Shown piece by piece: positions 2,547 through 50,630 of a stretch of 64,000 bases of DNA. The number at the start of each line of letters is the position of its first letter. Positions within the stretch are counted from its first letter, which is position 1. The stretch comes from Gnetum montanum (taxonomy: Eukaryota; Plantae; Gnetophyta): the NCBI GenBank assembly GCA_015680685.1, contig MNCI01002112.1, positions 432,932 through 496,931 on the forward strand. Direction: 5' to 3'. Position numbers and translations under genes: made by a program. The notes beneath the pieces are model-generated. The model saw nothing but the letters and a program-made list of their open reading frames with translations, did no database searches and was not told the origin of the DNA.

Positions 2547-3176
2547 ACACTCTTGATAGTCCTCTTCTTTTAGGTGATGTTCAAAAGGGGAAGAATTTAT
2601 GAAGTTGTGTTAGTGTATGAATAGCCTTATGCATAGCTATGTCTTTACCAATTATGATTTATTTGGGAAGTTTGTAATGATGGTATTTTTTGGCTATTTG
2701 GATAGTTTGTGATATGTTGTTGAAGGAATAAACTTGCAGTTGGTTTGTGTGATACAAACACTATTTTGCAGTCTCATGATAAGAGCTGATTACTTCTTGA
2801 GTGAAGTAGATCCTCTAGTGCATACGCTATGCGACATCTCCATTAGAGTTATTGAGCAACAATTCAGTCTGTAAGCTTTCGATGTGCTATGCGGCATCGC
2901 TCATGAAAGTGCTCAAGTTCTTAATTTCTGCGATCGTGTAGTGCTTTTTCATTTCTTGTTTATTATCACCATCGCCATGGCTACCCCTCCAAATACTCCA
3001 TCAACCTTCGACCAGCCATATGGTTCCTATTCTGATGAATACTCACCTGATTCACCTCCATATTATACTTCATTTCCCTCTCCAGCCACCTATCATGCTC
3101 GAGTAAATGAAGCCATATTCAGTCACGTCATGAACCGTAGCCCAGAATCAGCAACGCCCTAGGTTGCACCCCCAAA

Positions 3177-3189
3177 TGGTATCAGAGCC
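3177..3189 (+). other. tRNA-Met(i) primer binding site of EVE1
   Basis: TGGTATCAGAGCC. Confidence 0.92.
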
Positions 3190-3783
3190 TGTGTAGAAGC
3201 TATAGTAACGCAAAACCAAAACTTTTGTTCACCTTCTACAGTACCCTAGCTTGAATTCACTAATGAATTAGCCAAGATCGCATCAAAAAGTGCAGATGAG
3301 CACATCGCTATAACAAGTCAATATTATCATCTTATGGGACTCATGTATAGCTCAACGCTAGCATTAGAACATCTTGCAAAGACAGATGTAACTCTGGATG
3401 ATTTTGTTCTTGTCAAACAAAGAAGACCTAGGAGTGCACCAGGAAAATTAGAAGGAGAATTGATAAAAGTGGATCAATTATATATGGAAATCCAAGAAAA
3501 CAATGGAAAAGTAGAGAAGCCAAGTCAATGGACTTCTACTCAAATGGAATATGAAGCTCCAGGACCTTATCAACAAGAAGATGCGGAAATATTAAGACAA
3601 TGGAGTAATGATCAGATAGATGTTTATAAGCTGAAGATGGACAAGATTTATGATGAAGATCTAGCTGTACAATAGACAGAAGAAGAAAATGCTACTTGGT
3701 ATAGATGGGAACAAGGAGAACAAGCTGATGTAGTCTATGATGAGTATCTAGAGGATATAGATGGGGAAACGCATTGAGCTTTT

Positions 3784-4460
3784 ATGATGAAGTCTACAAC
3801 ACAAGATGTGGATCAGACAGAGCTTACGGAAGATGAAAAAGCAGTCATCCCTTTTCATGAAGCCCTGCTTAGCAAAAAGTCTTTTGTGTCTGAAGACGGA
3901 AGAATAGAGTTTCCAGAGATCACCATGAAAGCTATTTACAATTTTACAAATCTGTTCAATCATCGCCTAACAACATCAGTAAAATAGTCCAAAGCAATTC
4001 TTGACATCAAAGGTAATGGCATCAGACCAGTCTTTATACCGTTCTTCATTGAGGAAGAAGTCAACATGTGGAAGAGAAAGAATCATCATTATGTGCATCT
4101 CAGACAAATTGACATAATATTAAGTCCAAAATTTAACTATGATCTCAATGCTGAATTTCTTGTTACATTGTTAGATAGTAGAATCATTGGGAATGGATTT
4201 GATGATGATCCAGAAACAGTCTGGGAGTTATCTAAGATTTGTCAGTTCAAAGGAATTTTAAATGCTGATGCTATATGTTCTGTCCAACAAAATTTTTAAT
4301 TATCACTAAATGATGAACATATCACATCAACTTTACTACTTTGTGTGGAAGTACATGGTGTTAAGTTATTACCAGGAAGTGTTTATGCTGCTATTGGTGC
4401 TAGAAGTACATTTCAATTAACAAATACAGTTTTTATGAACCATAAGCTTAAATGGGGAGT
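3784..4460 (+). pseudogene. 30K-family viral movement protein domain
   Basis: HHYVHLRQIDIILSPKF...FLVTLLDSR matches the caulimovirid MP pattern (YVHxxxIxI...LLDxR). Confidence 0.8.
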
Positions 4461-5291
4461 AAAATTTCCAGTTGGTAGCAAACATTTATTAGCATGTGGT
4501 AGATCTATAGAAGCAGACGGTTATATTCAAGGTTTTCCTAGAATTCAGAAGTTTTTAAAAGATCAGGAATTTCAAAAAAGTCCAAAAACAAAAAGAAGAA
4601 TTAGCAAATATCCTATACAGCAATTTGACATAAATGCAGTAATAGATTTAGCCTCTTTGCCACCAGTCTTACCATCAGTTAAATATGATAGTAGACCTAG
4701 TAGCAGTACAAATAGTAGTAAAGGCAGCAATATTGACCCCAAAGGATCATTATTTATGATGCAATATAGAGATGTAAAAGGAAAAAGAATACATCAAGGA
4801 GGAAAATGGCCACCAAAGGCATCCTATCATACAACCATTTCAGAGGATCAGATACCAGAAATTAGAGTAGACTATAGCTATCTGTTAGAACACAGCATAG
4901 AAGATAGCACGAATCAGAAAGAAGAAATTCATCAGTTAAAATATTTGTGCCATTGGACCAGCTATTGTAGCAACAACATGAATCAATTAGAAATAAGTTG
5001 CAAGAAGTGTAGGAACATGTAGGTCATTATGAAGATATCATAAAGCATCAAAGGTGCAAAAAGAAGGATAAAAAAGGAACGTTTTTAAAAGAAGTTCAAA
5101 GTTTAGAAAAGAAACTAGTTGCTCATGAAATCAGGGAAAAGGATCCAAAGAAAGATGGTTGGGAACCAACAAAATTAAAAGAAAAATTACAAAATCTTCA
5201 AGAAGAAAAGAAGTTAAAACAGCCAGCAGTAAAGTCATCAAGGTCATCAGCATCTTCAGATTCAGAACAGAAAGGTTGTCAGGGACAAATA

Positions 5292-5995
5292 ATGATGTCA
5301 TATCCTCTAAAATTACAAAGAATTCCACCAGGTTTTATGGCATATCAAGAACTAAATCCAATAGCAGTACCATTAATCAACATTGATTATACACCACCAA
5401 GAGAAATAATACACACTCTCAAAAATTGGGTTGAGCATTTAATGATTACAGCAACAGCAGCGCAAGCAGATAATGAGATAGGAATCAAAATTGGAATGAG
5501 AAGAACATCTGGCAAAATTAGATATTGGTGGGATAATTCAACAGACGAAGCTAAAAATGAAGTCATCGACAGCGAATATGAAGGTCTGTACACTACTTTA
5601 TCTACAGAATTTTCAATTGAACAAACTAACTATTTAACAATGAGTGATAAGATGATGCTAAGCCAAAAGAAGCTACATCGACTAGAAGACTTTGAAGAAT
5701 ATAGCGCAGAGTATGGAAGAGAAGTTTATCGCCTGGCCTTACACAGAGATCCCCTTACAAATCAGCTGTATCTTAGCTCTTTGCCTAGTAAGTTGGGATA
5801 ATTCGTCATTCATAATGCTTTAATGAGGGATATAAATATTTCTTATCAGTATTTTGTAGATGTAGTTCATCTAGTTAGACAAGAACTACAGAAAGCATGT
5901 TATGATGTAAGCCTTAGGAAAATTATTCCTAATGTAAATATTTGTAACAATATTGATGGAGTAGATTACCGTCCAAAAACATTAAAAAAAAGATT
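5292..5995 (+). pseudogene. Caulimovirid capsid protein core (zinc knuckle deleted)
   Basis: LINID..., EVYRLALHRD...LYLSSLPSKLG. Homologous to EVE2 38810-39460, where a CX2CX4HX4C knuckle follows. Confidence 0.75.
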
Positions 5996-5999
5996 CCAT

Positions 6000-6785
6000 A
6001 GTAGAGCACTATGAACACTTGAAAGTTGTTGCAAAATTATGCATAGAACATGGCATAGGACTTTCTGGATCACCGCAAAAGTTTTAGGTTTGTTGCAAGA
6101 AGATTGAATTCTTAGGAGTTTCCATGGAAGAAGGAAAAATTTTAATGCAGCCACATATATTAGAAAAAATTGTGAAGTTTCCAGACCAATTAGAGTCCAA
6201 GGAATAATGCATGAGGTTTCTTGGATGTGTCAACTACATCTTAAGGTATATCAATTCTTTGTCAGACAAAACACTAGCTTTGAGGAAATGCAAGAATTCA
6301 GCTCCATTTCAATGGATAGAAGCAGCAACCAAAGAAGTTTGTGAATTAAAGAAGATCAGCTAGAATCTATTGCCATTAGAGCCTATCTGGGAAGGATCCT
6401 TTATCCTAAATATATATGCAAGCTACGATGCTTGGGGAGCAGTTTTACTAAAAGTGGGAAAAAGAGAAGAAAATGAAGCAATTTGTGCCTATGCTTCAGG
6501 ATGTTTCGCTAGTAATGAGCTCAACTACTAGCCAGCAGAGAAAGAGATCCTTGCAGCCATTAAAGGATTAGAGAATTTTCATGTGTATTTAATTGAAGAA
6601 ACATTTATCCTACGGACGGATTCAAGTAACCTAGCCACACTGATGAAGAGAAAGCTCACAGCTTCACCAAAGTTACAGAGATTTGCATGGTGGCAATTTC
6701 TTTTGTCCCAGTATGATTTCTTAGTTTAGCAGGTATTGTCAACCATGAATGCCTTACCTGACGCCTTAACACATGAATTAAAATG
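6000..6785 (+). pseudogene. RT C-terminal part and RNase H of EVE1
   Basis: EHLKVVAKLCIEHGIGLS...IEFLG; ASYDAWGAVLL; CAYASG.F...ELNY...EKEILAAIKGLENFHVYLI...FILRTDS; NALPDALT.EL. Confidence 0.88.
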
Positions 6786-6789
6786 TTTT

Positions 6790-7332
6790 ATGCTTAGAGG
6801 ACCCAGAGCCGTAGGTTCCAGTTCCGGCGAGTCAGCTGAAGAAGAATGGAAGAAATGGCCTCTAGAAACCCTAGAGAATCGAGTAGCATGGTGTCAAAAC
6901 ATAACCATGTTATTCCCGCAAGATTCAACAAGCAGTGTTTCAAGGCTGTATCCAAACTTGGATGTATTCATCAACATGGCAGGTTGCATTGATTGTATCG
7001 TCAACAATTCAAAGTGGACCAGACTTGAACCAAGGATTCTTCATCATCTACAAGATCATGCTGTCCTTGACAATATCTTACTCATCCGATGCCAGTTGTT
7101 TTCAAATCAGTTTGCACGCAATTATTTCAACCACTTACTGCAATGGAATGGATGGGAAGTAGCACTTTGCAACACATTTCAATGGATCAACTTGTACGAA
7201 GAAGTCACTGTCTACCACAATGAAGTAAAAGTGGAACGACCGCCTTTGCTTGAAGATAAAGATGCCCAAGACCCTACGTCACCGCCAAGCCTACTTGAAG
7301 ATATGGCACGACTCATCCACCTTTGTGCGTAG
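6790..7332 (+). CDS. Orphan ~170-aa domain fused C-terminal to viral RNase H (open in this copy)
   Basis: In frame with the RNase H end NALPDALTHEL. Homologous to ORF 35754..36338 of EVE2. Confidence 0.8.
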   Translation: MLRGPRAVGSSSGESAEEEWKKWPLETLENRVAWCQNITMLFPQDSTSSVSRLYPNLDVFINMAGCIDCIVNNSKWTRLEPRILHHLQDHAVLDNILLIRCQLFSNQFARNYFNHLLQWNGWEVALCNTFQWINLYEEVTVYHNEVKVERPPLLEDKDAQDPTSPPSLLEDMARLIHLCA

Positions 7333-7801
7333 CATCCATAGAGTGATCTTGAAAGCTCTATAAGGTCTAACCTAGGCGTAATAATAGAATGTAAAAGTCA
7401 ACAAGCAGTGTTTCAAGGTTGTATCCAAACTTGGATGTATTCATCAACATGGCAGGTCGCATTGATTGTATCGTCAACAACTTGAAGTGGATCAGACTTG
7501 AACCAAGGATTCTTCATCATCTACAAGATTGTGCTGTCCTTGACAATATCTTACTCATTCGACACCAGTTGTTTTCAAATCAGTTTGCACACAATTATTT
7601 CAACCACTTGCTTCAATGGAATGGATGGGAAGCAGCACTTTGCAACACATTTCAACAGATCAACTTGTATGAAGAAGTCACTGTCTACCACAATGAAGTA
7701 AAAGTGGAACGACCGCCTTTGCTTGAAGATGAAGATGCCCAAGACCCTACGTCACTGCCAAGCCTACTTGAAGATATGGCACGACTCATCCACCTTTGTG
7801 C
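6925..7801 (+). repeat. 473-bp-period tandem duplication of the orphan-domain region
   Basis: TCAACAAGCAGTGTTTCAAGG starts at 6925 and again at 7398. The copies differ at about 20 of 404 positions. Confidence 0.9.
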
Positions 7802-8040
7802 CNNNNNNNNNNNNNNNNNNNNNNNNNNNNNNNNNNNNNNNNNNNNNNNNNNNNNNNNNNNNNNNNNNNNNNNNNNNNNNNNNNNNNNNNNNNNNNNNNN
7901 NNNNNNNNNNNNNNNNNNNNNNNNNNNNNNNNNNNNNNNNNNNNNNNNNNNNNNNNNNNNNNNNNNNNNNNNNNNNNNNNNNNNNNNNCGTTCCTATTCT
8001 GCTGAATACTCACCCGATTCACCTCCATATTAAACTTCAT

Positions 8041-8100
8041 TTTCCTCTCCAGCCACCTATCATGCCCGAGTTCCCTCTCCAGCCACCTATCATGCCCGAG
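8041..8100 (+). repeat. 30-bp tandem duplication in the 3' terminal repeat of EVE1
   Basis: TT(T/C)CCTCTCCAGCCACCTATCATGCCCGAG twice. Single copy in the 5' repeat. Confidence 0.9.
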
Positions 8101-9769
8101 TAAATGAAGCCATATTCAGTCACGTCATGAACCATAGCCCAGAATCAGCAACGCCCTGGGTTGTCCTCTTGGCTATATCATATGGTGGAGACCTCATAAT
8201 ATTATCAGTTTTCCTTCTTGTGGAGTCATGTGATTTGGACCCTTTGACTTAAGCATTTATACTCTTATTCAAGCAATACTCTTTACTATCATTGGAGTTT
8301 ATACATCTTAAATTCTTTTATTTTATATCATAATATTATATATTATGAAATGTAATAACCCATTTTCTTAAGTTTTGAACTTCACTAAAAAGGGAGAGAT
8401 TTTTGACCTTTTGATATGTCAAAACCTTAGAGAAATTAAAGAATGTAGAATGTGTGTGTGTGTGTGTAATTGATGTTTTTTAGGTTGAAAATGAGCAAGG
8501 ACATTACATGAGGATCCAAGATTTCAAGAATGATATCCACAATGATGAAATGAAGACAAAGGTAGAAAAGATGAGAGAATGAATGAAAACAAAGTCTACA
8601 AGCTAAACGAAGATGTTTTGGGGATTACTGAGATGCCCAAAAAAAAAAAGAATGCTCCAAATATCAAAGTGTCTAAGCAAAGTAGATGTCTCATTAAAAA
8701 ATAAACATCTAACTTAGAGAATAGACATATCAGGGTAGACGTCTCCACTTTTAGATAGATGTCTCTCCTACATTAAGGCTAGTTTCAAATAGACATATCA
8801 TCCTTGAAGTAGATGTCTAAACTAGTCATTTAATAGTCATTGCCTAAATTATGAAGAGTTTTGGAAACTCAAAGGGTATAAGAATAAGTGAAATTCTTGA
8901 GAATTGTGTGATCACTATTCATTAAAAGATCTATTCTTGGTTTCTTATGCGAATTTTTCCTTGCTCTTCATTAATTTATCATTTGTATATTTTGTATGTT
9001 GTGATCTTCAAGTGTAAGGAATCATTAAATCAAGTTACACTCTTGCCTTTATCTTTTTCTTTCTTTATTTGTAGGCTTGTAGGGTTGATGTGCTTCTTGT
9101 AAGAAGGGGTATTAATTGAGCTTGTTAAGACCTTGTGGGGTTGAGTGATTTTATAGTAACAAAACACTTTGGTGTGGAGCTAAAATTTGTAAACGTTGTG
9201 GAATCCTTTAAACCACATTTTCAACTTGTTGGGGCCCTATGGCATTAAGTGGCTTCGTAGTAATGAAACACATCAAAGAAAAGCTCAAATCTTGTAATGG
9301 TTATGGTGCCCTTAAAATCACATTTTTGAAGCAAGAAAGTGTAGAGGTGTGCATGGAATCTACCCTCTGAGTGTGAGCTACTAATGTTGAAAAACCACAT
9401 AAAAATTATGTTTGATTTTGGTGGCGGTAGATATTTTGATTAGGGAACTTATTTAATCCCTCTTCTAAGTTATTGATTCACAATTTCATTAGTAGTCCAT
9501 AAATATTGCTAGAAGATTCTCAACACTAGAACCCAGTGTATGAACCTATTTCTAGCTTGGTTTTGCAAGGGAATCATATGAGAGCTAGATTTGACAGTCA
9601 ATACCAAAACACTCAACACTTAATAGTAATTATTATATCTACCCAATCCTAAGCGTAACATGATTGCAGTAGAGGTGAGAATTTGGGTTTCTATCATTAA
9701 CAGGATAAGATAGAACTACTCAAGCTTTAACAATTATGGATAAGTAGGACTTACATATCAATAACTTCA

Positions 9770-17077: not shown

Positions 17078-20000
17078 TGATTGTCTTACAAGTTTTTTTT
17101 GCAGGTTTTTACACTTGGAGAAGACCTATATGTGTGTGTCTTATTTTTGTGTTGATTTTTATGATAAATATTTTTGGATGTTTTGGTGTGTTTAGAGGTG
17201 TTTTTGGCTTATTTTGATGAGTTTAGGAGGTTTTAGGATCTATGGGAAATTTTGGGAAGGCATCCAGAGGCTTCCAACATCAAAATGAGAACTTTTATTT
17301 TTGGCACTTTACAAGAGATGTCTTCCTAGAAATAAATATGTTTTTCCAAAGATGTATCCCCTAAAGTGAAGATGTCTCTAGCATAGAGAATACAACTTCC
17401 AAAAATAGTAGACATCTCTCTTGAGAACATGGCTTTTACAGAAAAAATCTCCCTAGAAAGATAGAAGTTATTCCAAAGAGTATAGATGTCTATATTGTAG
17501 AAAAGACATCTTTCAAAAATAGTAGATGTCTCTTTTGAGAATAGAGTTCTCACAGAAGATGTTTACATAAAAGAAGAGACATCTATTTCTGCAAAGAAGA
17601 AAAGCTTTGACATGACATTTTGATTAGGAAACATCCAAAAAACTCCAAATTCATGTGGGAAGCATCTAGGTAGGGAAATAAAAAGCTTCCTATGGTTTTG
17701 AATCTTTATGATTATGTATTCCATCATCCATGAGAAGGAGGAGAGTTTTTATGTAAGGCAAACTAGGAAAAAGAGATTGGGTGAACACATTAGGTGAGTG
17801 AAATAGGTTATTGTAGCTCCAAGGTTGGCTTCTGGTGTGTTGATCTATGTGTTCTATTCTATTGTACCTCACTTGTGAGTTGAGATCTTAGTCCCAAGTT
17901 TTGGGAGATATTTCTATTGGTTGTGTTTTACATTAAGAGAAACCATTGTATGATTATAGAGCCTCATGCTCTACAATATTGTTTAAGTGTGATAGGTTTT
18001 TGGATGCTTTTGGGTTGTGTGAACCTTATTGTAATCCTCAAATAATTTAATTGAAGATAGCTAGTTTTCTTATTTTCTAGCAAAAAAATTTATCTTTTCA
18101 TAATATCTGGATTTAGTGCTTTGAAAGTGATTTAATTATGGAGTGAACCTACTCTATCATTATTGGTATCAAAGCCTAGTTTTATTGTTTCTTGGATTTT
18201 GGTTGAAGATTCTATCAATTTTAGATGGCAACCCAAAAGCAACAAGTGCAAGCTCTAAATCATGACATAGAGAGCATGAAGTTAGCCTTCTAGATGATGG
18301 TTGCTTGATTGGATGAAATCAACATGAAGATGGATAGATAAGCTAGTGCTAGCCATATCCAAACACATGGAGGTGAAGAGCCTATATGTTTAGATGAAGA
18401 AGTTTCATAACCAAGTCAAGAAGGAGTAGATGAAGAGGAAGGTCAATCCAGCTATGGGAGTGTAGGAAATCATTAGCTGATCAAAATTTAAGTGCTACAG
18501 TGTGGAGAATGGGAACATAAGTAATGGAAATGTTTGCTTCACAAGGTAGCCAAGGGAAAAGATGTGCAAACCATGGAGGTGGAGGAGACATAAAACCAAG
18601 CTCTTAAGAGAGGTAATTCTAATGCTCCAAAAATTGAGAATGTTTTTGAATAAAAATCTTGTGCATTCATAGGGAATCTAAATAAAGGAGATCATCCTAA
18701 TAGAAGATTGTTGTTTTGAATTAGGGCTAGTTGTTTTCTTAGTGGGGAATGGATTCATGTTTTAATTGATGGGGGAGCCCAACAAAATTTTATTTATTCA
18801 AAGGTAGTTACTAAATTGGGTTTGGAAAATCATCCTCATTCAAGACCCTATAAGGTGCATTGGTTATTTAAATATTTTTTCCAAGAGATGAGGGAATGTA
18901 CTTTGAAATTTAAAATTAAAATTTTTCATGATGTTATGAGGTGCGATGTGCTTCCAATAGACTTTGCTGATGTAATTCTTAGTAGAACTTGCAATTTTGA
19001 CAATGGTGCTTAGTTTGATGAAGTAAGAAATGTGTGGAGTGTTGTTAGAATCGATGGAGTCCATGATTTGATTCTTATGATAGCTGAACAAGTGAGGTAG
19101 AAAAGCTCACTTAATGCTTTCTTAATCCTTCTAGGAGAGAGGAAAAATATTAAGGAACATGATGAAACTAGTTTTGGTTTTGTTGTTATGAAAACAGTTG
19201 CTACTAACCATGATGTTGTGTAGGTTAAAATTCCTACAGGTGTGCTAGGCTTGAAGGAGAAATCTTCCAAGGTATTTAAGGGGCAATTAGATGGACTACC
19301 ATTGATGAGAAATGTACACCATTAGATTGACATCATTCCTAGTGTTATCATTCCAAATGAGAAAGCTTATTGGATAGCAACAAATCAAAGGGATGAATTG
19401 CAAAGGTAAATAGAGGGGTTACTTGCAAATGGCTTTGTGACAAAATCCATTTACCTTGTGAAATTCTAGTAGTTTTAGTACCAAAGAAGGAAAATAATGA
19501 ATGGAGGATGGAAATGGATTCCAGGACAATGAATAGGATAATAGTAAGATACAAGTTTCCTATTCCAAGGATGGATGATATCCTTAATGCCCTTACAAAT
19601 GTTGAAATTTTTAGCAAAAATGACTTGAAGAATGGGTACCATCAAATTAGAAGTAGACCTATTAATGAGTGGAATATAGCTTTCAAAACATTAAATGGAT
19701 TGTTTGAGTTGTTGGTGATGCCATCTGGGCTCATGAATGCACTTTCTACATTCATGAGGTTGATGCATGATGTATTGAAGGACTTGATTGGTAAGTGATG
19801 TACTTTTTTTTTGATGATATTTTGGTGTATAGCTCTAATGAGGAAGAGCACTTGAATCACTTGAGGATGATGTGCCTTAATTTGGAGGAGGCATAGTTGG
19901 TGATCAGTGTGAAGAAATTTCTTCAAGAGGGAAATCACATATTTAGGACATGTGGTTTCTAAAAATTAGATTCAAATGGAAGCTACCAAGGTGAAGACTA

Positions 20001-21740
20001 TAATGGATTGGCCAACCCTAAGAATGTTGGATAGGTAAGATCATTCCTTGGTTTAGTAGGTTTTTATAAATGGTTCATAAAAACTTTTAATACCATTTCA
20101 TGATCTATGTTGGCTTTGTTGAAGAAAAATGAAAAATTTAGATGTGATAATGAAACCCAAGGGGGCTTTGACTTGTTAAAAGAAAAAATTACCAGTGAAC
20201 TAGTACTTGAAATTCTAGATTTTTAGAAGGTTTTTCATGTGGAGGTGGATGCAAGTGGACTTGCCATTGGTGGGGTACTTTTACAAGAAGGTAGGCTTGT
20301 TTCTTTATTTTCTAAAAAATTGAATAATTCAAGGCAATAATATAGTGTATATAATAAGAAGGGGTTGTACGTGATTCTTTAAGAAATTAAGCATTGGAGG
20401 CATTACTTGTTGTCCTAAGAATTCACTTTGATGATGAACAACAAAGTACTTCAATTTCTAAATTTAGAAAAGAAGTTGAGTGCAAAGCACATGAAGTAGG
20501 TTGCACAGTTACAAGAGTTCAATTTTTTGTTAAAGTAAAAAAGTGGAAAAGCTAATGTGGTAGCTGATGCATTATCCAGGGTGCATGTTGCAAATTTTTG
20601 CATACCTCATGTGGAAGGTATGGATGATTTTACTTCTTTATATGACCATGATGCTAATTTTGGATAGGTTTCGAGGAGCCTCAAAGAGCTATTGATGAAT
20701 AGGATAGACCAATTGAGGGACTATCATATTCAAGATGAACTATTATTTAATAATGAAAAGGAATGTGTTCCTAATTGTGATTTTAGAAAAAAATATTTTC
20801 CGTGAAAAGCATTGTAGTGGCATGGTAAGTCACATGGGTAGGGATAAAACATTGGAACTTGTGGGTCAACACTATTTTTTGCCTAGTATGGCAATAGAAG
20901 TCTCTAAATTTGTGAAGGATTTCTTGACATGTCAGAAGTTCAAAGGAGGTAAAGGTGTGAATGGACACTATATGCCTTTGCCAATTCCAAATGGTCCATG
21001 GGAAAGTGTGTCAATGGACTTTGTGAGTGGTATTCTAAAGACCAAGAGTGGGAATGGTGCAATTTTTGTTTGGTGAATAGGTTCTATAAGATGACACATT
21101 TTATTCTATGCAAGAAGGTGAGTGATGCCTCTCATATTGCAAATTTATTTTTCCAACATGTTGTGAAGTTGCATGGTATTCCTTTGAATATTGTTAGTGA
21201 CAAAGACTCCAATTTTACAAGTCATTTTTTGAGGTTCCTTTGGAAGATTTTAAGGACCAAGTTAAATTTTTTAGTGCATATCATCCACAATCTAATGATC
21301 AAATGGAGGCAGTGAATAAATCTTTGTTAAACATATTAAGATGTTTGTGTGATGGATAGCCAAATAGGTGGAAAAACTTGTTTTGTCATGTTGAACTTTC
21401 ATATAATAATTCTTTTCATGTTTCAGTTGGAAAAATCCCATTTGAGGAGAAGTATGGGTTTTGTCCAAAGATGGTGGATACTTTAAGGAGCTTTAATGGT
21501 GAAGCTCAACTTAGTTATGATTTTGTGTAAGAGATGAAGGATCTCCATGCACAAGTAAAATAAAATCTTAAGAATAAGGCTAAACATATAGTTCTTAAGA
21601 TGAATGAGAATAAGTGGAAGCCTAATTTTGCTATTGGTAACTTGGATTGGATGTAGTTGAAGAAGAAGTGGTTGAGAGCTGTTAACTTCTCCAAATATAA
21701 AAATAAGAAGATGGGGCCTTTTAAAATCAAGGCTAAAATT
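17078..21740 (+). mobile_element. Degenerate chromovirus-like (CRM-like) Ty3/gypsy element: 5' LTR, gag-pol, 3' end missing
   Basis: LTR ~17078-18162. PBS TGGTATCAAAGC at 18164. Zinc knuckle KCYSCGEWEH..WKC ~18490; protease LIDGGAQQNF ~18765; RT YKFPIPRMDD/DLKNGYHQIR; RNase H EVDASGLAIGGVL; integrase [11 protein letters not shown]; GPF motif ~21715. Confidence 0.88.
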
Positions 21741-34400: not shown

Positions 34401-34900
34401 TTGTTCCATAGATAACATAGGAGATGAAAAATTAGGGATATTTGTTTGGAGAGCTAATTATTGAAAGAGGCTCTGGATGAAGGTGTCTAATTTTTATTCA
34501 ACCTTAAATTCATCTTTTTTCTCTCGAGGCCCATTGGAACTAATCTTCTTACTCCACTCATTGACATTTATAAGTTGTATTAACATGTGTGCATAGAAGT
34601 TAGTGAGGAAAATTTTATCATAGGATGATGGGATGTATTCTTTTCCATCTTGATGAATAATTTTGAACTGATGCTTATTGTCAAATTCAAAATGTTCTAT
34701 GAGAAGGCTAGATTGTATTTTAACATAGAGGAAATTATAAAACTTCTCAATGATCATGGAGAAGTCTTGGTTCTTGGCCCTCTACCTAAGAAATTGTTTA
34801 TTGTCTATGGTCATTAAGTATTTTGGATCATAGACATAGACTCTATCTTGGTTGGGAACCATGTAGGCAAGGTTGAGTGGCAATATGATTGACCTATGAA
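31450..34900 (-). pseudogene. Ogre/Tat-like gag-protease remnant (no RT or integrase seen)
   Basis: KYNDKGDPNTYLNTF...IFPISLTRKAMDWYHTLPRGSI (gag, ~33660-33830). RVHVDDKVDINVLP (protease, ~31845-31885). Confidence 0.7.
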
Positions 34901-35092
34901 AAGATATTAATTGAGGATTTAGCTAGGTTATGAATTACAAGTTTCAACAGATGAGACTACTCAGTGTATAAAAGACTTAACCTATGGAATATGGTAAAAT
35001 AGGCAACTTCAAGAGTAATGCTAGTGGTAGAAGCAACATTGTTCACTACATTGGTAAATATTAAATAATTAATTTTCTTTTAAAAATTTTTA
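34766..35092 (+). repeat. Left copy of 327-bp host duplication flanking EVE2
   Basis: Colinear with 39692-40018; 13 mismatches counted, no indels. Confidence 0.95.
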
Positions 35093-35685
35093 GGATGTGA
35101 CTCCGCGAGCCACGACTAGAGCATGCAGTGCTTGTCTCAGGTTTATGTGGAACCTAGCAGGACTGTCAAAACATAGGAACATCTACCTAGGACAATGATC
35201 CAAAAGACTCGATAGGCCATATCACATCCATGATATAGTGACAGGGCTCGACGTCAATAATGTGCTCTTGTCTCGACACTTCTCAAGATGAAGCAATTCT
35301 ATCAGACTCTCCTAGCTGATCTTCTAACCTTTCTTTAGCAAACGCGACTGATTCGGGCAGCGACTGATTACGGTACACCTAATCAAGAGAGAATTGGCCG
35401 CAACACTAGGGTTTCTCCAGGAAAACACAATGCAAGTGGATTTTAGTAGAATGTAGCAACGATTCACAAGTAAACTATTAATGTGATACCCATAAGAATG
35501 CAACATATGAAAATTGGGTAACCAAGGATTAGGAACACAACTTCTATATCTTCTTGATTCATATTATAGGCTTGTAGACAGACATGCAAACTTGCAGAAC
35601 TTCAGAATTGACTCTTCGACTTCAAATCCTCTCTATTGCTATTGCTCTTTTTTTTTGCTCTCTATTCTTGGTTTTCCATGCCTCT

Positions 35686-35805
35686 TATTTATAGAAATTG
35701 AGGTTGGGTTTGGTGTACAAGCCATGCCAATGACTCACACACTTATCTAGATGTTACTCACACTTATCTAGATAGACACTATGACTCAGATGCTGTGACT
35801 TAGCA
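35686..35805 (-). promoter_or_regulatory. Probable EVE2 pregenomic-RNA promoter
   Basis: CTATAAATA at 35686-35694 (-) just after the polyprotein. Upstream are TGACTCA-like motifs (35731, 35782, 35796) and CACTTATCTAGAT twice. Confidence 0.65.
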
Positions 35806-36410
35806 TCCTTATCTTCAAATGTCTTTGAGGATAGCCTTGTGGACAGGACAAATTTCCCACGTGTTTTTGTACAATCAAGACAATATTTTATCAGCTTTGC
35901 AAGTTCAGACAACACATTGGATGGCGTTGACAATGATGCTTCCTCTGGCAGCGGTAACAACTTTGGAACTAATTGCTCATTCTCGTACCAATTTTTTTCT
36001 TCAAAGAAATTAATCCGTTGGAACGAACTACATAATTTAGATTCCCATTGTGTTGCACCGATGACATGGTTGAGATAAGTTCTAGCATTATCATTTGGGA
36101 ATAATGGCCTTCGGATGAGCAACAAGTTGTCTAGCACTTCTAGTTGAGACAAATCTGTTAAGATCCTTCGCTCGAGGCAGCTCCACCATAGATTGTTGAT
36201 GATACAATCTATCCTGCCTGCCATGTTGATGAATAGATCAAGCATAGGATATTGCTTGCTGATACTCATTGCAAAATCTTGAGGGAAGAACTTGATGATG
36301 AGGTGACACCATTGGACTCTGTCTTCTAGGCTATTCAACGGTCATGATAGCCAATCATCTATATCCTGTAATGGATTCTGAGAGCTACTACTTCCTTCAG
36401 GCTACAACAT
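35754..36410 (-). pseudogene. Orphan C-terminal domain of the EVE2 polyprotein
   Basis: In frame with the RNase H end NFLPNSLTKEL through three C-to-T-type stops. FINMAGRIDCI is shared with EVE1. Confidence 0.8.
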
Positions 36411-36429
36411 TTCTATCTAAGCTTGTGGC

Positions 36430-38345
36430 ATGAGTTCTTTAGTTAGAGAATTAGGTAAGAAATTAACTATTCTTGGTATCCTTTCCATTGAAAATTGGTA
36501 TTGGGTTAATAAGAACTTCCACTAGGCAAATCTCTATAGCTTTGGAGAAGGAGTGATCTTTCTCCTTAACAGGGCTGCAAGATTAGCTAAATCAGTATGC
36601 AAAATAAAATTACCTTAAATTAAGTAGATATGGAAATTCTCCAATCCTCTGATTGCTGCAAGTATTTCCTTCTCAGTTGGCCAATAGATTAATTCATGCT
36701 TATGAAATGAACCAGAAGCATATGCACAAATTTATTCATCATTTCTTGCACCTTTCCTTAGTAACACTGCTACCCAAGCATCATAGCTTGCATCTGTATT
36801 TAACACAAACCAACCTTTGATGATCGGATTAAGGGGTGGTAGGTTCTGACATTCATTCTTCAGTTGAATAACCTGTTCTGAAGCTTTCTTTGTCCAGTTG
36901 AACGGGACTTGATTCTTACACCATCTTATCTCTATATTTTTATCAGAAAACTTATTTATATGCTTAAAAACATAATTTACACATCCTAAAAACCTTAAAC
37001 ACTATTCTTTGTTTTCAAGGTGATCAGGAAATTAAGTGATCTTTTGGAGGACATGCGGCTGCATGTATATCTTTCCATCTTTGAGTTGGACTCCGAGAAA
37101 TTCTATTTCTCTTTTCCCAATTTGAAAATTTTGTGGATCTTTGGACAAACCAATCCCATGCTGCTTACACATCTTAGCAAACTACTGCAAATGGATGACA
37201 TGTTCTTCTATGGATTATGAGAAAATCAGGAATTCATCAATATAATTAGCAATAAATTTATGGTACCTTCTAAAGACTTTATCCATTCTATGCTGAAACT
37301 ACGATGGCACATTTTTGAGGCCGAATGGCATGCCTATCCATTCATATAGTCCTTGAGGTGTACTGGATGCAGTTTTATGGATGTCTTCTTCTGAGATTTT
37401 GATCTAATGGTACCCACTCTTACAATCAAACTTACTGAAATAAGAATTCACTGCAACCTTCTGGATTAAATTCTCCTTGTTTGGTAATGACCATTTAACA
37501 TCAATGGTTATGACATTCAAAGGAATGTAATTGATAACCATTCTTGCTTTACCTCGTTTTACTGTGGACTATGAAACTTGCACAAAAATAATTAGACTGT
37601 GAAGGTCTAATTAATCCCTTTTTTAGAAATTCTTCAATCTGTTTTTCCATCTCTTCTGTATCCACTGGGTTGAGTATAATTTTCTTGCTTTGAACTGGGA
37701 TATTATGAATTGTTGGAATAAAAGCAACTAGACTATCCTTGTCCTTAAATCTAATGGGTGTTCATTGCAACATGCTTGTAATTCCTGAAAACAGAGAACT
37801 AACTTATGGTCTTTAGTATTTACATCTATATGGGCTTTCTTGAGCTGTTGAAAATGCTGGTACTTTGCTCTTGCAATGTCTTCCATCTCATACTACGAGA
37901 TTATCTTTGAAACTGTAGGATTCTATTTGAACTACTTCAACTAAGGGTGCTTATTTCATTGCATAGCTGCTGGGATCCTTCATATGATAATCTTCGATCT
38001 TGGATCTTGAAGTGGAGATGAATAGACAATCATCTCTAGACCAACTATGTAAGGACCTATGCAATCCATAAAGTGTGCTCCTAAGCCAATGTCAAATCCA
38101 CTATCCAAACCTTGCACAAAATTGGTTGTGCCCACATATTCATCATTAAGCAAGATAGGGATATTAAATGGAAAATGAGACAAAATTCTAACACCATTCA
38201 TAGTTTCCAAAGTAACTGGCTTAGTGTTTTCTTCCCATTTTTCTAGCACATTCTTATGGAAAAAATTTAAAGTAGCACTTGTGTCGATGAAGGCTTGATA
38301 TTTTCTCCATTTCTTGTCACCATCCACTACAATCTTGATTGGAAT
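36430..38345 (-). pseudogene. EVE2 aspartic protease, RT and RNase H
   Basis: ORF 37980..38327 (FIDTSAT). RT motifs GKARMVINY, FSKFDCKSGY, MPFGLKN. RNase H EKEILAAIRGLENFHIYLI. Confidence 0.92.
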
Positions 38346-39691
38346 CAGAAAAATAGTATGTAGTGAGATTAGGTGTTTGATTTTACGTTGAATCTCTGGA
38401 GCATGCTTCTTTCTTTTACTTCTAGTCTTCTTTTCTTCTAAATTAATAGGAAACTTTTTCTGAGATCATCAATTGGTTTCCATTCTGGATAAGCTTCAAA
38501 AAAGGCTTTAATATTTCCACCATCTTTCTTTAAACCATCAGGAAATTCATAGGAATAATGACCTTGTCTTTAGTAGGTGTAGCAGGTGATTGACTTTCTT
38601 CTGACTGGGCCACTTCTTTTCTTGGCAAAGAATCTCTTTCTTCCTAGCTTGAATGTTCTTCGAGCCATCCATCTTTTCCTTAAAAATCTTGGAAAACTTA
38701 TTTTCTTTAAAAATCTTCTTTTTGGATGTTGTGAGGGAGCTCGGGCTGGAGGACCAAAAGAATCAACTCTATTTAAGTTCTTACACACTTCTGCTGACGG
38801 TAACAGCTTCTATAGAGAGACATTGTAGCATGAAAATTGTAGCTTTTGTCTAACCATATGAACTACATCTATGAAAGAAGTTAAAGATAAATCTACATCT
38901 TTTTCTAATGCTTTATACAATACCATTTGTCCTAACTTAGCAGGTAAACTCAAAAAATATAAATAATTAATCATCTTATCTCTGTGTAATGCTAGTCTGT
39001 AAACCTCATTAGCATATTTTGTGCTAAATTGTTCAAAGTAGCACAAATCATGCAATTTCCTTTGGCTTAACAACAACTTATCTTTAAATCTTTACTTGGA
39101 AGACAAATCTACTATAAATTCAGTAACAAGGGCAACAAATACACCATGTAAACCAATTTGAAGGATTTTCTCTTGTTGCTCTTGGGTAGCACTTTCCCAC
39201 CTATGAAGAATATTTCCTGCTGCTCTGATGAAGGTTCCAATGATTGTAGTCCTTTCATCAATGTTGAGGATGTTCATGGCAATTCTCAACTGATCTATCC
39301 ATAACCTTAAAGCATGGAGTACCTCTTTCGGTGGTAAGTAATCAATGTTGATTACAGGAATTGTAGATGCTGGCCATTGTTGAAAAGCTAAGAATGCTGG
39401 AGGAGCATTTACTGTAGGACGTTGCCGTGATCTTGTGGGTTGTTGTCTTCTAGCGATCATAATCCTTTGTTGGTATTCCTATAAGCTTAGTTGTTTTTAG
39501 CTTTTCATCTTCTTCTTCTTATGATGGAGGCACTGTAGGTTGTGTTGTAGGTTGACTTGTGGAGGCTTTCTTTCCTTTCTTTTCTTCCATTAATCTTTTG
39601 ATTCTTTCCAGTAGAAATTTATCTCTAGGATCAATGGTTGATTCAGGAGCTTTAGGAGCTTGAACTAGAATTGGTTCCTTAGTTGGTTGAA

Positions 39692-40018
39692 CTTGGTTCT
39701 TGCCCCTCTACCTAAGAAATTGTTTATTTTCTGTGGCCATTAGGTATTTTGGATCATAAACATAGACTCTATCTTGGTTGGGAACCATGTAGGCAAGGTT
39801 GAGTGGCAATATGATTGACCTATGAAAAGACATTAACTGAGGATTTAGCTAGGTTGTGAATTACAAGTTTCAACATATGAGACTACTCAGTGTATAAAAG
39901 ACTTAGCCTATGGAATATGGTAAAATAGGCAACTGCAAGAGTAATGCTAGTGGCAGAAGCAACATTGTTCACTACATTGGTAAATATTAAATAATTAATT
40001 TTCTTTTAAAAATTTTTA
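39692..40018 (+). repeat. Right copy of 327-bp host duplication flanking EVE2
   Basis: Matches 34766-35092. Confidence 0.95.
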
Positions 40019-40126
40019 TGCTTTGAAATCTTGGAAATAATGGCTACACTACAAATGGTTGCTAGGAAGAATTAATTTGAAAATGTCTAGATAGGTTACT
40101 AACCTTTACATCCAGTTTGGGTAATC

Positions 40127-40880: not shown

Positions 40881-41049
40881 ATCTATTATTAATTGTTAGC
40901 ACATTTGGCCATTTCATGGAACAGTTGGACTATCTTATCAAAAATTGAAACATCTTGGTGTTGGTACATTTTTCCCATTTAATGGAGTAGGCTTTATGAT
41001 TGAAAGGGAATTTCATTTATCGTTTGTTCTATATTGATTTAAGAGAGAG

Positions 41050-41780
41050 ATGATCTACCCATCCAAACATTTTTACACTAAATTTTTAAAAATAATGTAT
41101 GGTTGGAAATTTAGAAGTAAACATGTAGCTTTAAGGTTATGGGTTGATGGGTGTTTTGGAGAAGTAAGCAGACTACTAAACATAGATGGGATAGAGGAGC
41201 CTACAGTTGCACTTGTTATTTGGGGAATGGGAGGTATCGGTAAGAGCACTTTGGCTATTGCCTCTATTAAGAGCCTGGAGAACAAACTCTCACAAAAATA
41301 CAACTTTGCCAGAATCAAGTTTGACAACATTGTAAAACAAGCAAAGCATTTCCATATTGCTAAGTTGCAAAAACAAATTCTTCATTATTTGTTTATAGGA
41401 AAAACAGAAGAATTTTTGTTTAGTGGAAGGCATGATGTTGAGGATGATTATTACATCCCATGTACAGGAAGTCAAAGATGAAGTTCCAAACTGTTGTGAA
41501 AAAATTTAAAATTTATCAAAGACACCGTCTCCATGACTGATTATTAGAGCATTTACTGGAAAAAAAGTGATGGGCCCTGTCACGAAAGAATTCAGAGAAG
41601 CATTTGCAAATGAGATGAGCATGTTGAGGGAGGTAGCATACTTATACTGTAGGATTCCTTTGCTGCTAACTATGGTTGGAGGACAGCTACGTAAAAATAG
41701 ACACTCCAATACTTATGATGAGTTTATTCAAAAATTAAAAATGGGAAATGTTAATTTCAAAATTGTTGAGTATGATAAAA
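41050..41780 (+). pseudogene. Captured NLR NB-ARC fragments in the 5' LTR U3
   Basis: P-loop IWGMGGIGKSTLA, RNBS-A-like LQKQIL, GLPL-like (C)CGIPLLL.MVGGQL. Kinase-2 segment absent. Confidence 0.88.
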
Positions 41781-42398
41781 TGCAACAAAATAGAGGCATC
41801 TTCATCGATAAATTCATGTTTCCTTTCCTGGCCAAGGCCTGCACCATGCTCTAAGACTTGCACCAGGGCCAGAATGTGTATCGTCATGCCAGAAGAGCTC
41901 GATTTGATTCCAACTTGGTCATCATGAACTCATTCATTTTCATGTTTAGCAAATGCTGCTACCTAGACCTTGCGAGAAAGGTGTTTAAGAAAATTCCTAA
42001 CAAAATCCTAGTTTCATGGAACTCTATGGTTGCGGCTTATGTCGAAAATGGATACTTGGATAAGGCCTTCGAAATTCTGGAAGTCACATGGGACATTAGG
42101 GTCTACCCTGATAAGGTCATTATTTTGAGTTTGCTCAGTGGATGCACTAAATTTGGGGATAGGAATGTAGAGTTTGTGCATGACTGGGCTATAGAACATG
42201 GTTTGGATTCAGATGTTGCCGTGGGCAACGCATGGGAGAATTGGGGATGATTTCCCAGGGCTAGTCCGTTTGTGCCCTGATTTTGAAAAAGGGCTTTGAT
42301 GTAGATACTATTATTAGAATAGCTTTCATTAATATGTATTCCAAACACAGGGATATGTGCAAAGTTAGGAAATTACTTCCAGAGAATATTTTGCAATG
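41780..42398 (+). pseudogene. Captured PLS-class PPR fragments in the 5' LTR U3
   Basis: DKF.FPFLAKAC, ARKVF..IP.K.LVSWNSMVAAYVENG, PD.V.ILSLLSGC, GLDSDVAVGNA, A.INMYSK. Confidence 0.9.
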
Positions 42399-44359
42399 AT
42401 GAACCTGTAAACAACCTTACCAAAAATAGCAGCAGTGCCAGATGCCAATGCATTCGTCTTCGCCATTACCAATCCATCCAGTGTGGTCACAGAGACATGA
42501 AGACATAGCAAGATAGGTGTAAAACTGAATCAACAGAACTAGGAGACATTTTAGCTGATGTCAATAAATCAGGGTTATAGTTTATTCAGAAGAAACCATC
42601 ATCGCTGAAGAAAAATAAAAAACCTGAATGCACAGAATTAAAGTCACAAAATAAAATTACAATTTCATATGGTTCAGTGGCTAAATATAATTTTAGCAAA
42701 TTTCCTTACAAGAAACAATTGTATGAAGTGCTTATTAAAGACCTAGCATTAATTTAATTATCTCAAATGAATTACTAAGGCTTTATACAAGGTGGGTGAT
42801 TAAAATCCTAAATAAAATATGACAATTGTATGAAGCTCGTAGGAGATCTTGGATTTATTTTTAGGTTATTGATTATAAAAGAAATATTTGCACATGCCAA
42901 TGTTAGCATGATTTTCTCCTAATTTTATGTATAAGTTACAACTTCCTAACTTGTTGGGCAAGTAATATCTCCTAACTTGTTGGGTAAGTTATAACTTCCT
43001 TTCTTGGGAGAGAAGCTACCTAAGATATTTTTAATTTCTAACTACCTTTTGAACCCTATAAAAAGGCTTCATGGGTTTGAAAAAGAGAGGGAACTATACT
43101 TGCTCTCATTGAGAGATCACACACTTTGGGGTCTCACACTTGGGGTCTTGGAGGAAGATTGTAAAGAAGACATTGTGAAAGATTGCTTGTAAGATGACTT
43201 GTTAAAGACAACATTTCAGCCTCTTTGTCATAGTCCTGTGAGTTATGCTTATTATTTTTTATTTTGTTTAAATTCTTTAGCTAGTGGTTTAGATAGTATC
43301 ATGCTTCGCAAGTAATTTTTGGATTTTTAGATTTCTCTTATTGTTCTTGTTGCACGATAGAAAATTTCTAATAAAGTTTTGCCATAGAAGAGCTTGTGTT
43401 TGAAATCCTTAAGAGCATTTTAGTAGTGAATTTTATTATTGTGCAATGTATAAGAACCGCTATTGAGATTGTTGTAAGATAGCCTCTGCATATAGTCAAG
43501 TCGTTGAACGATTCAATAGTCAAGAGGGTTCAGAAAATATTTGGTATTTTGATAGGACTAGAAAAGCTTCTTTTATCTTTAAAGTGAATCTCTATGGTAG
43601 TTCAATCAGAAATTATCAAGTATTTTGAAGGTTCTATTGAATGCAATCATTGACATCCATTATCTAGCCAAAATAGAGTCTGGTACATGATAGTTTACGT
43701 AGCAATTTTTTGGGTAGCATAGTAGGATTGTCTTGAAGAAATTGCTTATTTGAGCCTTGGAAGTTTGAACAATTCGTAGTTATTGAATTTGGGACAAATT
43801 TATTGCGAAGTGTTTACTCATATCATTTTACCTTGTTTAAATATTTGAGATCTTTACACAAATCTGCTTTCTTTTTCTCTTCTTTCTAATTCCATTGAAT
43901 CTTGCTCTATTTCTAGTTTTCTTGTGGATCTATCTCTTTCTTTGGGGAAAATTAGAAGTAGATTCACAGAGTTGTGCTCAAATGTTTTTGCAAAACTTTA
44001 TTTGTTAAAAGTAGGTATTATAAGGACTGCATAGACTAGGCAATTGAANGTTTAACACACAACCCAATTATTTCATTTTTCACAATAGCACACCAAAATA
44101 GCACACACACATACTCACATTCACTACTGAGTCTATTTCGAGGTATCTAGGCCTTGGTGTTGCCAAAAGACCAGTAAGCACCTAAATCCTATTCGAGGGC
44201 ACTCGTTGACGGTCGCATCCCAAACGGTCGACAACAATTGTTTTGGCACTAGAAGAAGGGCTGAAAATTTTGCCTCTAAGTTCATAAGCCTTATAATTTT
44301 AGCACATCAACAATTCTTTGTTACTAAAAAGGCTTAAGAAATTAAATACTATTTTCAGT

Positions 44360-50330: not shown

Positions 50331-50630
50331 AGAACAGCCTTCATCATGTCAGAAATTTCCTATGATAGAGTTAGAGATATGAGGATTTCTAATAGAGTAA
50401 CCCTCACAGTTCTGTTTCCATCTCAAGAATAGTCCATGAATGAAGGACTTGCTAATGTATAGTTTTTTTTTAGGAATGAGGTTTTTGTACCATCAAACCT
50501 AATGTTTGTTGGGAATTTTCCTTCAAAAATATTTTTCTGTTCAACTGTAAAAATTCAATAAAAGTTTTAGTATGTTTTAGTTTTAAAATGGGGCTGCATA
50601 AATTTCTTTAAGCTTTTAAGGGGGCAAAAA

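Follow-up and report, generated by a model that had tools for sequence, protein, structure and literature searches.

In two decayed caulimovirid insertions, EVE1 and EVE2, the coding frame continues past the end of RNase H and through a short linker into a conserved domain of 179 aa and 20.9 kDa (domain X), which has been under purifying selection and which carries, in its intact relatives, a C-terminal Cys/His motif of the form C-x2-C-x7-C-x2-H. We propose that X is the last polyprotein module in a lineage of caulimovirids whose sister is Welwitschia mirabilis virus 1 (WMV1), with the viral aspartic protease likely to cut it from RNase H at a hydrophobic-Met linker. This would yield a predicted ~24-kDa protein (counted from the linker Met), likely to bind zinc through the terminal motif, that may act on the host, in counter-defence or host regulation, and not in reverse transcription. 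Taken as a whole, this reading of X as a protease-released, zinc-binding, host-directed accessory protein is the one preferred here, at slightly less than even confidence.

Two caulimovirid insertions in the window

The window (the whole 64-kb stretch of DNA that was analysed) consists of low-GC plant DNA with assembly gaps, RT fragments of LTR elements and the two insertions. EVE1 lies on the + strand (~2977-8163) and its order is primer binding site, movement protein, capsid, RT thumb, RNase H, domain X twice and a gap, with an out-of-frame jump at the junction from capsid to RT thumb. EVE2 lies on the - strand (~40026-34766) in the order capsid, protease, RT, RNase H and X; a comparison of the elements within the window found no movement-protein match in it, and no tRNA-Met primer binding site was found there within two mismatches. 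The features are as follows.

3177..3188, + strand: EVE1 tRNA-Met primer binding site (exact 12-mer, the only exact match in the window)
3844..4662, + strand: EVE1 30K movement protein (44% to WMV1)
5325..5966, + strand: EVE1 capsid protein region (DUF7746, below the Pfam cut-off)
5995..6771, + strand: EVE1 RT C-terminal part and RNase H (upstream zinc knuckle, protease and RT core missing; junction out of frame)
6772..6855, + strand: EVE1 linker, a candidate protease site with a Ser run and a hydrophobic-Met junction (Met at 6790)
6856..7329, + strand: EVE1 domain X, first copy (premature stop at 7330-7332 inside the Cys/His motif; remainder of the motif in another frame to ~7363)
7398..7801, + strand: EVE1 domain X, second partial copy (95% nt identity to the first; runs into the N gap at 7803-7988)
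35688..35694, - strand: TATA-like box CTATAAA (~120 nt beyond the natural end of EVE2 X)
35815..36359, - strand: EVE2 domain X (frame broken within the Cys/His motif; ends naturally near 35815)
36360..36431, - strand: EVE2 linker (Met and Ser run)
36432..37568, - strand: EVE2 RT-RNase H (49% to WMV1; RT core 65%)
37992..38345, - strand: EVE2 aspartic protease (Peptidase_A3, E 8.4e-7)
38762..39403, - strand: EVE2 capsid protein region

The Caulimoviridae gene set, in which integrase is not expected, is found in its usual order across both elements: EVE1 contributes movement protein, capsid and part of RT-RNase H, EVE2 contributes capsid, protease and RT-RNase H, and each alone lacks part of the set. 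From its position the TATA-like box of EVE2 is likely the pregenomic promoter, and X is thus likely the last coding unit before it.

A 335-bp direct repeat of 95% identity (34766-35100 and 39692-40026) brackets EVE2. The resulting unit of ~4.9 kb spans capsid, protease, RT, RNase H, X and the TATA-like box but lacks both a movement protein and a primer binding site; it could represent a circle, deleted or dependent, that integrated as more than one unit length. EVE1 is also longer than one unit, the stretch before its primer binding site (3023-3166) recurring past the gap at 7990-8163. The second EVE1 X copy adjoins the N gap and differs from the first evenly over codon positions (identity 0.95/0.94/0.95); it is either a post-integration duplication or an assembly join. 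A bipartite reading, with EVE1 and EVE2 as complementary components in the florendovirus style, was rejected: their DNA is only ~64-67% alike with no non-coding match, and the junction in EVE1 both breaks the frame and is the point at which related contigs diverge.

Several other observations were made in the window. Between the movement protein and capsid of EVE1 (4760-5010, +) there is a GGKWPP segment, apparently unannotated, which by eye resembles segments in published gymnendovirus 2 genomes. A 2.8-kb duplication of 91% identity (40891-43672 and 50628-53399) holds gene fragments that look NB-ARC-like and PPR-like by eye. The other RT fragments, at 19484-20580 (+), 47411-48121 (+) and 59143-60363 (-), have 23-36% identity to caulimovirid RTs and are probably Ty3/gypsy elements.

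Conservation and reading frame of domain X

EVE1 6730-7329 (+) and EVE2 35757-36341 (-) were aligned by BLASTP with 77/156 identities (49%, E 4e-48) and one 2-residue gap. Between the first EVE1 copy and EVE2, identity is 76/153 (50%) over the whole domain and 67/126 (53%) in the ungapped core, a recount from that copy alone which agrees with the roughly 69/123 gapless identities of an earlier note on this DNA; the sequence motifs that it listed are all present. The local alignment score of 361 compares with 31 +/- 5.5, and a maximum of 67, for 1000 shuffles. Elsewhere the two elements share 90/211 residues in the capsid (43%), 68/121 in the RT thumb (56%) and 81/126 in RNase H (64%), so X is indeed at least as conserved as the capsid. 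The linkers, which had been described as similar, are alike in their Met and Ser run but otherwise unlike along their length (4/26, 15%).

The X core has a pN/pS of 0.51 (95% 0.38-0.73) and codon-position identities of 0.63/0.71/0.48, the linker a near-neutral 0.79 (0.59-1.08), the capsid 0.62, and RT and RNase H 0.31-0.35; with synonymous sites close to saturated, and with post-integration decay raising such ratios, these values understate selection. A constrained core and a near-neutral linker fit a folded domain behind an unconstrained spacer. Purifying selection shows that X was used and not that it was essential, as had been suggested.

EVE1 is free of stops from the end of RNase H up to 7330. 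EVE2 keeps the frame, but three stops interrupt it on the way from RNase H to X, out of 23 met in the 903 codons read in that frame. The intact natural ORF P0038 reads from the end of RNase H through the linker and the whole domain to its stop, without an internal stop; its RNase H end is identical to that of EVE1 at 31/42 positions and to that of WMV1 at 20/46. This unbroken reading shows that the fusion of X to RNase H is genuine, and the central claim of the earlier note, an unrecognised and selected domain fused after RNase H in both elements, is upheld. Sequencing runs from two organisms (A and B) contained many diverged contigs over X, and the X family is therefore multi-copy; a contig of run X1 spans 6555-7239, with 108 differing letters over its 693 bases. 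No RNA data set was listed as containing the sequence. No reads fell on EVE2 X in two RNA runs, and EVE1 X had, in one of two RNA runs, a depth of 0.1-2.4, every read being <95% alike, which is too thin for use.

Members of the X family and the terminal Cys/His motif

A HMMER search over 1.84 billion protein representatives returned six proteins, five of which are true, unnamed X fragments; the sixth, P0032, was rejected as a repeat artefact (a false match to a 70-aa tandem repeat). X marks a lineage, as had been proposed, with EVE1, EVE2, P0033 and its cluster mate P0038, and four more fragments as its members. In P0038, P0034 and P0037 the C-terminus of X is C-x2-C-x7-C-x2-H followed by a short helix and the end of the protein, and these are three of the four members from outside the window that reach that far; P0035 diverges at its end and is without the motif. 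All six aligned rows that have a residue at the first Cys position keep it. In EVE1 and EVE2 alike the frame breaks within the motif, the rest of which is in another frame ending near 7363 and 35815; in EVE2 this puts the last ~30 residues of the ORF out of frame. The ends given before, 7332 and 35754, are not natural ones; the domain has ~180 aa, and the motif, its most informative feature, had been overlooked.

Judging from this conserved spacing, X is quite likely to bind zinc through the terminal motif. It is charge-neutral (20 K+R, 19 D+E) and has no transmembrane stretch (maximum KD19 1.1). AlphaFold2, run with the 8-row alignment, predicted a core of alpha/beta type followed by an acidic, disordered spacer and, bearing the Cys/His motif, a helical end (pLDDT 58.0, pTM 0.41), and the core alone, also with eight rows, gave a pLDDT of 54.5 and a pTM of 0.37; both are low-confidence models and neither shows a confident fold.

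Searches for known relatives of X

No Pfam family passed its cut-off for X, including its eight members, and PDB sequences gave no match at E <= 10 by single sequence or by profile. The best ESM Atlas scores, 0.89 and 0.80, are both in the chance range. A word-index search with X found nothing among proteins of 288-2000 aa, the X profile gave back only four fragments already known, and contig scans found nothing in viral_contigs or metagenome_contigs. The structural check that had been recommended, AlphaFold with Foldseek, was run with the first, low-confidence model and gave no match at E <= 0.001 in BFVD and PDB; VIA-align, given the same model and 48,161 chains, had a best Z of 4.3, with none at Z >= 5. 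No known fold for X is shown by these searches of predicted models, which is not proof of a new one.

The X profile was also run over six frames of 145 caulimovirid-like loci (65 from viral_contigs, 80 from metagenomes), where the best domain E was 0.15; neither these loci nor Pfam gave the match to a described caulimovirid C-terminal domain that would have spoken against novelty. In profile-profile comparison with tail groups from 128 loci the probability was at most 1.3%, but with profiles this shallow even related tail groups score no more than 20-70% against one another, which leaves room for a deep homology of X to other tails; the largest group had been joined up through the RNase H ends that its members share and is not informative. 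No description of the domain was found in the literature searched. Its peptide motifs are absent from 12 of the 14 supplements of PMC13308828, and X may sit unnamed in the sequence libraries behind the 35 new OTUs of that paper.

Relation to Welwitschia mirabilis virus 1

Among named sequences WMV1 (BK061147; P0003) is the best match in RT-RNase H, with 178/360 identities (49%) and 108/167 in the RT core (65%). In the RT phylogeny, which had also been recommended, a quick IQ-TREE search was made on 51 rows: 45 picked by hand among the 118 loci in which RT-RNase H is complete, together with EVE1, EVE2, WMV1 and three gypsy rows. EVE1 and EVE2 group at an SH-aLRT of 99 and are sister to WMV1 at 98 among the rows tested, and the caulimovirid side that includes them stands apart from the gypsy rows at 100. 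WMV1 has been placed with subclade B.1, of gymnosperms, ANA-grade angiosperms and magnoliids (PMC13308828, in part). For the WMV1 OTU in that subclade the threshold is an RT identity of at least 62%, against which the RT core stands at 65% to WMV1, with RT boundaries that differ from those of that paper and a tree without WMV2 and OTUs 1 and 30.

WMV1 shares with EVE1 and EVE2 a Met/GSSS-type linker after RNase H and a single large ORF, and its movement protein is 44% identical to that of EVE1. Its 454-aa tail, however, has no detectable similarity to X (hhalign 0.1%) and is without C-x2-C-x7-C-x2-H, so between these sister lineages the post-RNase H tail seems, from the sequences compared, to have been replaced or to have diverged past detection. 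Inspection by eye had suggested florendovirus ORF2 as the family of the WMV1 tail, but this was not supported (hhalign 0.14%). The WMV1 polyprotein begins at the movement protein, whereas EVE1 has ~270 further in-frame codons upstream. This stretch (2977-3780, +) is in the movement-protein frame with four stops, crosses the tRNA-Met primer binding site and ends in a hydrophobic-Met junction; it is a second unrecognised module, at the polyprotein N-terminus, absent from WMV1 and without a Pfam match over 3250-3672.

The post-RNase H slot in other caulimovirids

The position of X had been presented as a surprise, but in-frame tails after RNase H reach at least 100 aa in 51 of 65 viral genomes and at least 40 aa in 61 (<20 aa in four), in a set that is mostly badnavirus-like owing to the retrieval patterns. 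A lineage-specific in-frame tail is the rule in the caulimovirid genomes examined, and the architecture of X is ordinary. Across the family the slot acts as an accessory module that can be replaced, X being one occupant that had not been annotated.

By published coordinates, 389 aa follow RNase H in Pinus nigra virus 1 (PnV1; PMC6256638) and 552 aa in WMV2 (bioRxiv 10.1101/2022.02.23.481439, in part). PnV1 is 79% identical to PtGy2 (PMC6256638), the tail of which, translated by eye, is unlike X, and no X motifs were seen in the tails of seven of the eight gymnendovirus genomes of PMC5766536 supplement 2, also translated by eye. X is a new protein family in a known architectural slot, unannotated in the libraries and literature searched, WMV2 being known by its coordinates only.

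PVCV and petuvirus-like genomes likewise encode a single polyprotein with an unannotated in-frame tail. A 7206-bp locus (L025), taken as PVCV on account of its length and of its 373-aa tail, which fits the 1115-nt 3' fragment of PMC7496347 (in part), has a linker with a Met and rich in Ser. The PVCV-like tail resembles X neither in sequence nor by profile (hhalign 0.08%, seven sequences against eight), is longer and is without the terminal Cys/His motif; that its strands and helices follow one another much as in X is no more than a by-eye guess. Florendovirus ORF2, a protein specific to its genus and without an assigned function, also occupies this slot; in most species it is a separate ORF, and in some genomes it is fused, lying within one ORF in Amborella trichopoda B virus (PMC4241990, in part). 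Together with the gymnendovirus 1-4 tails and PnV1 it exemplifies lineage-specific proteins in this slot, fused or separate. Comparison of X with florendovirus ORF2 and the gymnendovirus 3-4 tails gave at most 1.3% by hhalign, with shallow profiles, and one member shares the Cys/His spacing. This is the gymnendovirus 4 tail (L104, and published PtGy4 by eye), with C-x2-C-x7-C-x1/2-H, but internal and in surroundings unlike X. In L104:6217-7167 the form is C-x2-C-x7-C-x1-H, the only one in 194 tail segments (128 loci and WMV1), where the chance expectation of C-x2-C-x7-C-x1/2-H over all tails is 0.02; this common spacing may be taken as a lead only.

In-frame badnavirus ORF3 tails are of 50-260 aa and some bear zinc motifs, which differ from that of X, with no similarity between the tails. 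A GRF-like Cys motif was seen in 11 tail segments of the fetched loci, and GRF-like zinc ribbons occur in badnavirus-type tails at L064:6623-7096, L033:6402-6830, L037:6198-6542 and L057:6681-7055; the L064 tail matched Zn_ribbon_GRF at E 1.5e-4, below the cut-off. A literature search for 'badnavirus' with 'zf-GRF' found nothing.

CaMV P6/TAV and RTBV P4 are encoded at the post-RNase H position, and P6 suppresses silencing and bears a C-terminal zinc finger (PMC5902531, in part). Like X they lie after RNase H and before the pregenomic promoter; unlike X they are larger and are separate ORFs with their own mRNAs. There is no Pfam match of X to TAV and no similarity in six frames of the 65 viral genomes, in agreement with the earlier note, which saw neither TAV nor integrase motifs, and the separate downstream ORFs of L001-L003, L015 and L105 gave 0.36% by hhalign. 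By analogy, P6/TAV would be the most likely functional counterpart of X.

Release of X and its possible role

The pattern hydrophobic-hydrophobic-Met-hydrophobic occurs three times in EVE1: just before the movement protein, just after it at 4756, and in the X linker. WMV1 has a hydrophobic-Met site followed by GSSS at the corresponding place after RNase H, and in Ginkgo gymnendovirus 2 (PMC5766536 supplement 2, translated by eye) that place and two further boundaries show a C-[FL]-M junction. An unconstrained spacer with such a junction, found also beside the EVE1 movement protein and in WMV1, fits a cleavage site. The pattern was defined post hoc, after inspection, and its enrichment is not significant (P 0.09 and 0.39 in the 5' and 3' parts of EVE1, 0.07 in WMV1); as written it has no match in the EVE2 or P0038 linkers or at the EVE1 capsid boundary. 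RTBV cleavage sites have no obvious consensus (PMC1087892, in part). On balance X is probably cleaved from RNase H, and the earlier suggestion of release by protease is plausible.

The slot proteins of known function act on the host, and the slot appears to be exchanged between sister lineages, which fits an accessory role better than a core one; a host-directed role for X is put forward tentatively, by analogy. In its neutral charge X differs from many RNA-binding suppressors. The 3' fragment of PVCV alone did not suppress silencing, while the whole ORF did (PMC7496347, in part), and so the slot analogy does not give the function of X. A bolder version, in which X would be a zinc-finger counter-defence protein with a fold absent from the PDB, defining a genus-level lineage and swapped into the slot after the split from WMV1, we regard as unlikely.

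X might instead stay on or with Pol as a zinc-containing cofactor of reverse transcription or packaging. It is fused directly to RNase H, and its conservation of 50-53% is near that of the RT thumb (56%) and above that of the capsid (43%); yet its sister WMV1 replicates with a similar RT and a tail without detectable similarity, four of the 65 viral genomes have tails of <20 aa, and the linker is unconstrained, which makes such a cofactor quite improbable.

Translation of X from a start of its own, the linker Met, through a subgenomic or spliced RNA or leaky scanning in the manner of CaMV P6 and RTBV P4, and with the fusion incidental, has a small chance of being correct. Separate expression is documented or presumed for ORFs in the slot (PMC5902531, in part) and presumed for florendovirus ORF2, mostly separate and joined in the Amborella virus (PMC4241990, in part), and the linker Met is present in EVE1, EVE2 and P0038. 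However, these three lineages, up to 50% divergent, keep the linker frame, stop-free in the intact one; the start context in EVE1 is weak (T at -3), and similar Met junctions stand at internal polyprotein boundaries.

Virion-associated proteins are coiled coils, usually encoded before the capsid, and EVE1 has a charged and, by eye, coiled-coil-like sequence in that usual place, which argues against X being a virion-associated or vector-transmission helper protein, as does its being unlike any ORF in the 65 viral genomes. The lineage-restricted auxiliary proteins of caulimovirids do include transmission factors (PMC10377300, in part), and the C-terminal part of X is predicted to be helical, but we find this role decidedly improbable.

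An enzyme, either a PD-(D/E)xK-like nuclease as hinted in the earlier note or a decayed integrase, is the least probable reading by far: X occupies the Ty3/gypsy integrase position, keeps Asp77 and Glu106 (alignment A2) in all eight rows, has a predicted alpha/beta core and drew one ESM Atlas row with Integrase_H2C2 on 13% of members, but that row's score of 0.77 lies within what chance gives, GRID varies in P0035 as does the ExR Arg in P0038, P0035 and P0036, no integrase or nuclease family of Pfam passes in any of the eight members (no integrase family at E <= 1; the best nuclease-like row AHJR-like, E 0.16, in one member), and the X profile does not match integrase-bearing gypsy polyproteins. 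As to a restriction-endonuclease-like core fold, structural rows of nuclease type were at noise level (E 1.2; Z 3.2) with models of pLDDT 58 and 54.5. The zinc motif of integrase is an N-terminal HHCC, whereas that of X is CCCH and C-terminal.

Under the bolder version described above, the slot would be a protease-released cassette of exchangeable effectors, playing in pararetroviruses the part that swappable suppressor modules play in RNA viruses, and X would be a probe of antiviral immunity in little-studied plant hosts. PVCV has silencing-suppressor activity, the location of which is not mapped in the available part of PMC7496347, and in the literature examined no silencing suppressor or host-interaction protein has been mapped for single-ORF caulimovirids. 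X is small and conserved, has a clear motif and is available as an intact natural ORF, and it therefore offers a direct test of what post-RNase H tails do. The apparent replacement of the tail between sister lineages suggests a fast turnover of accessory genes in a family that is usually classified by RT alone.
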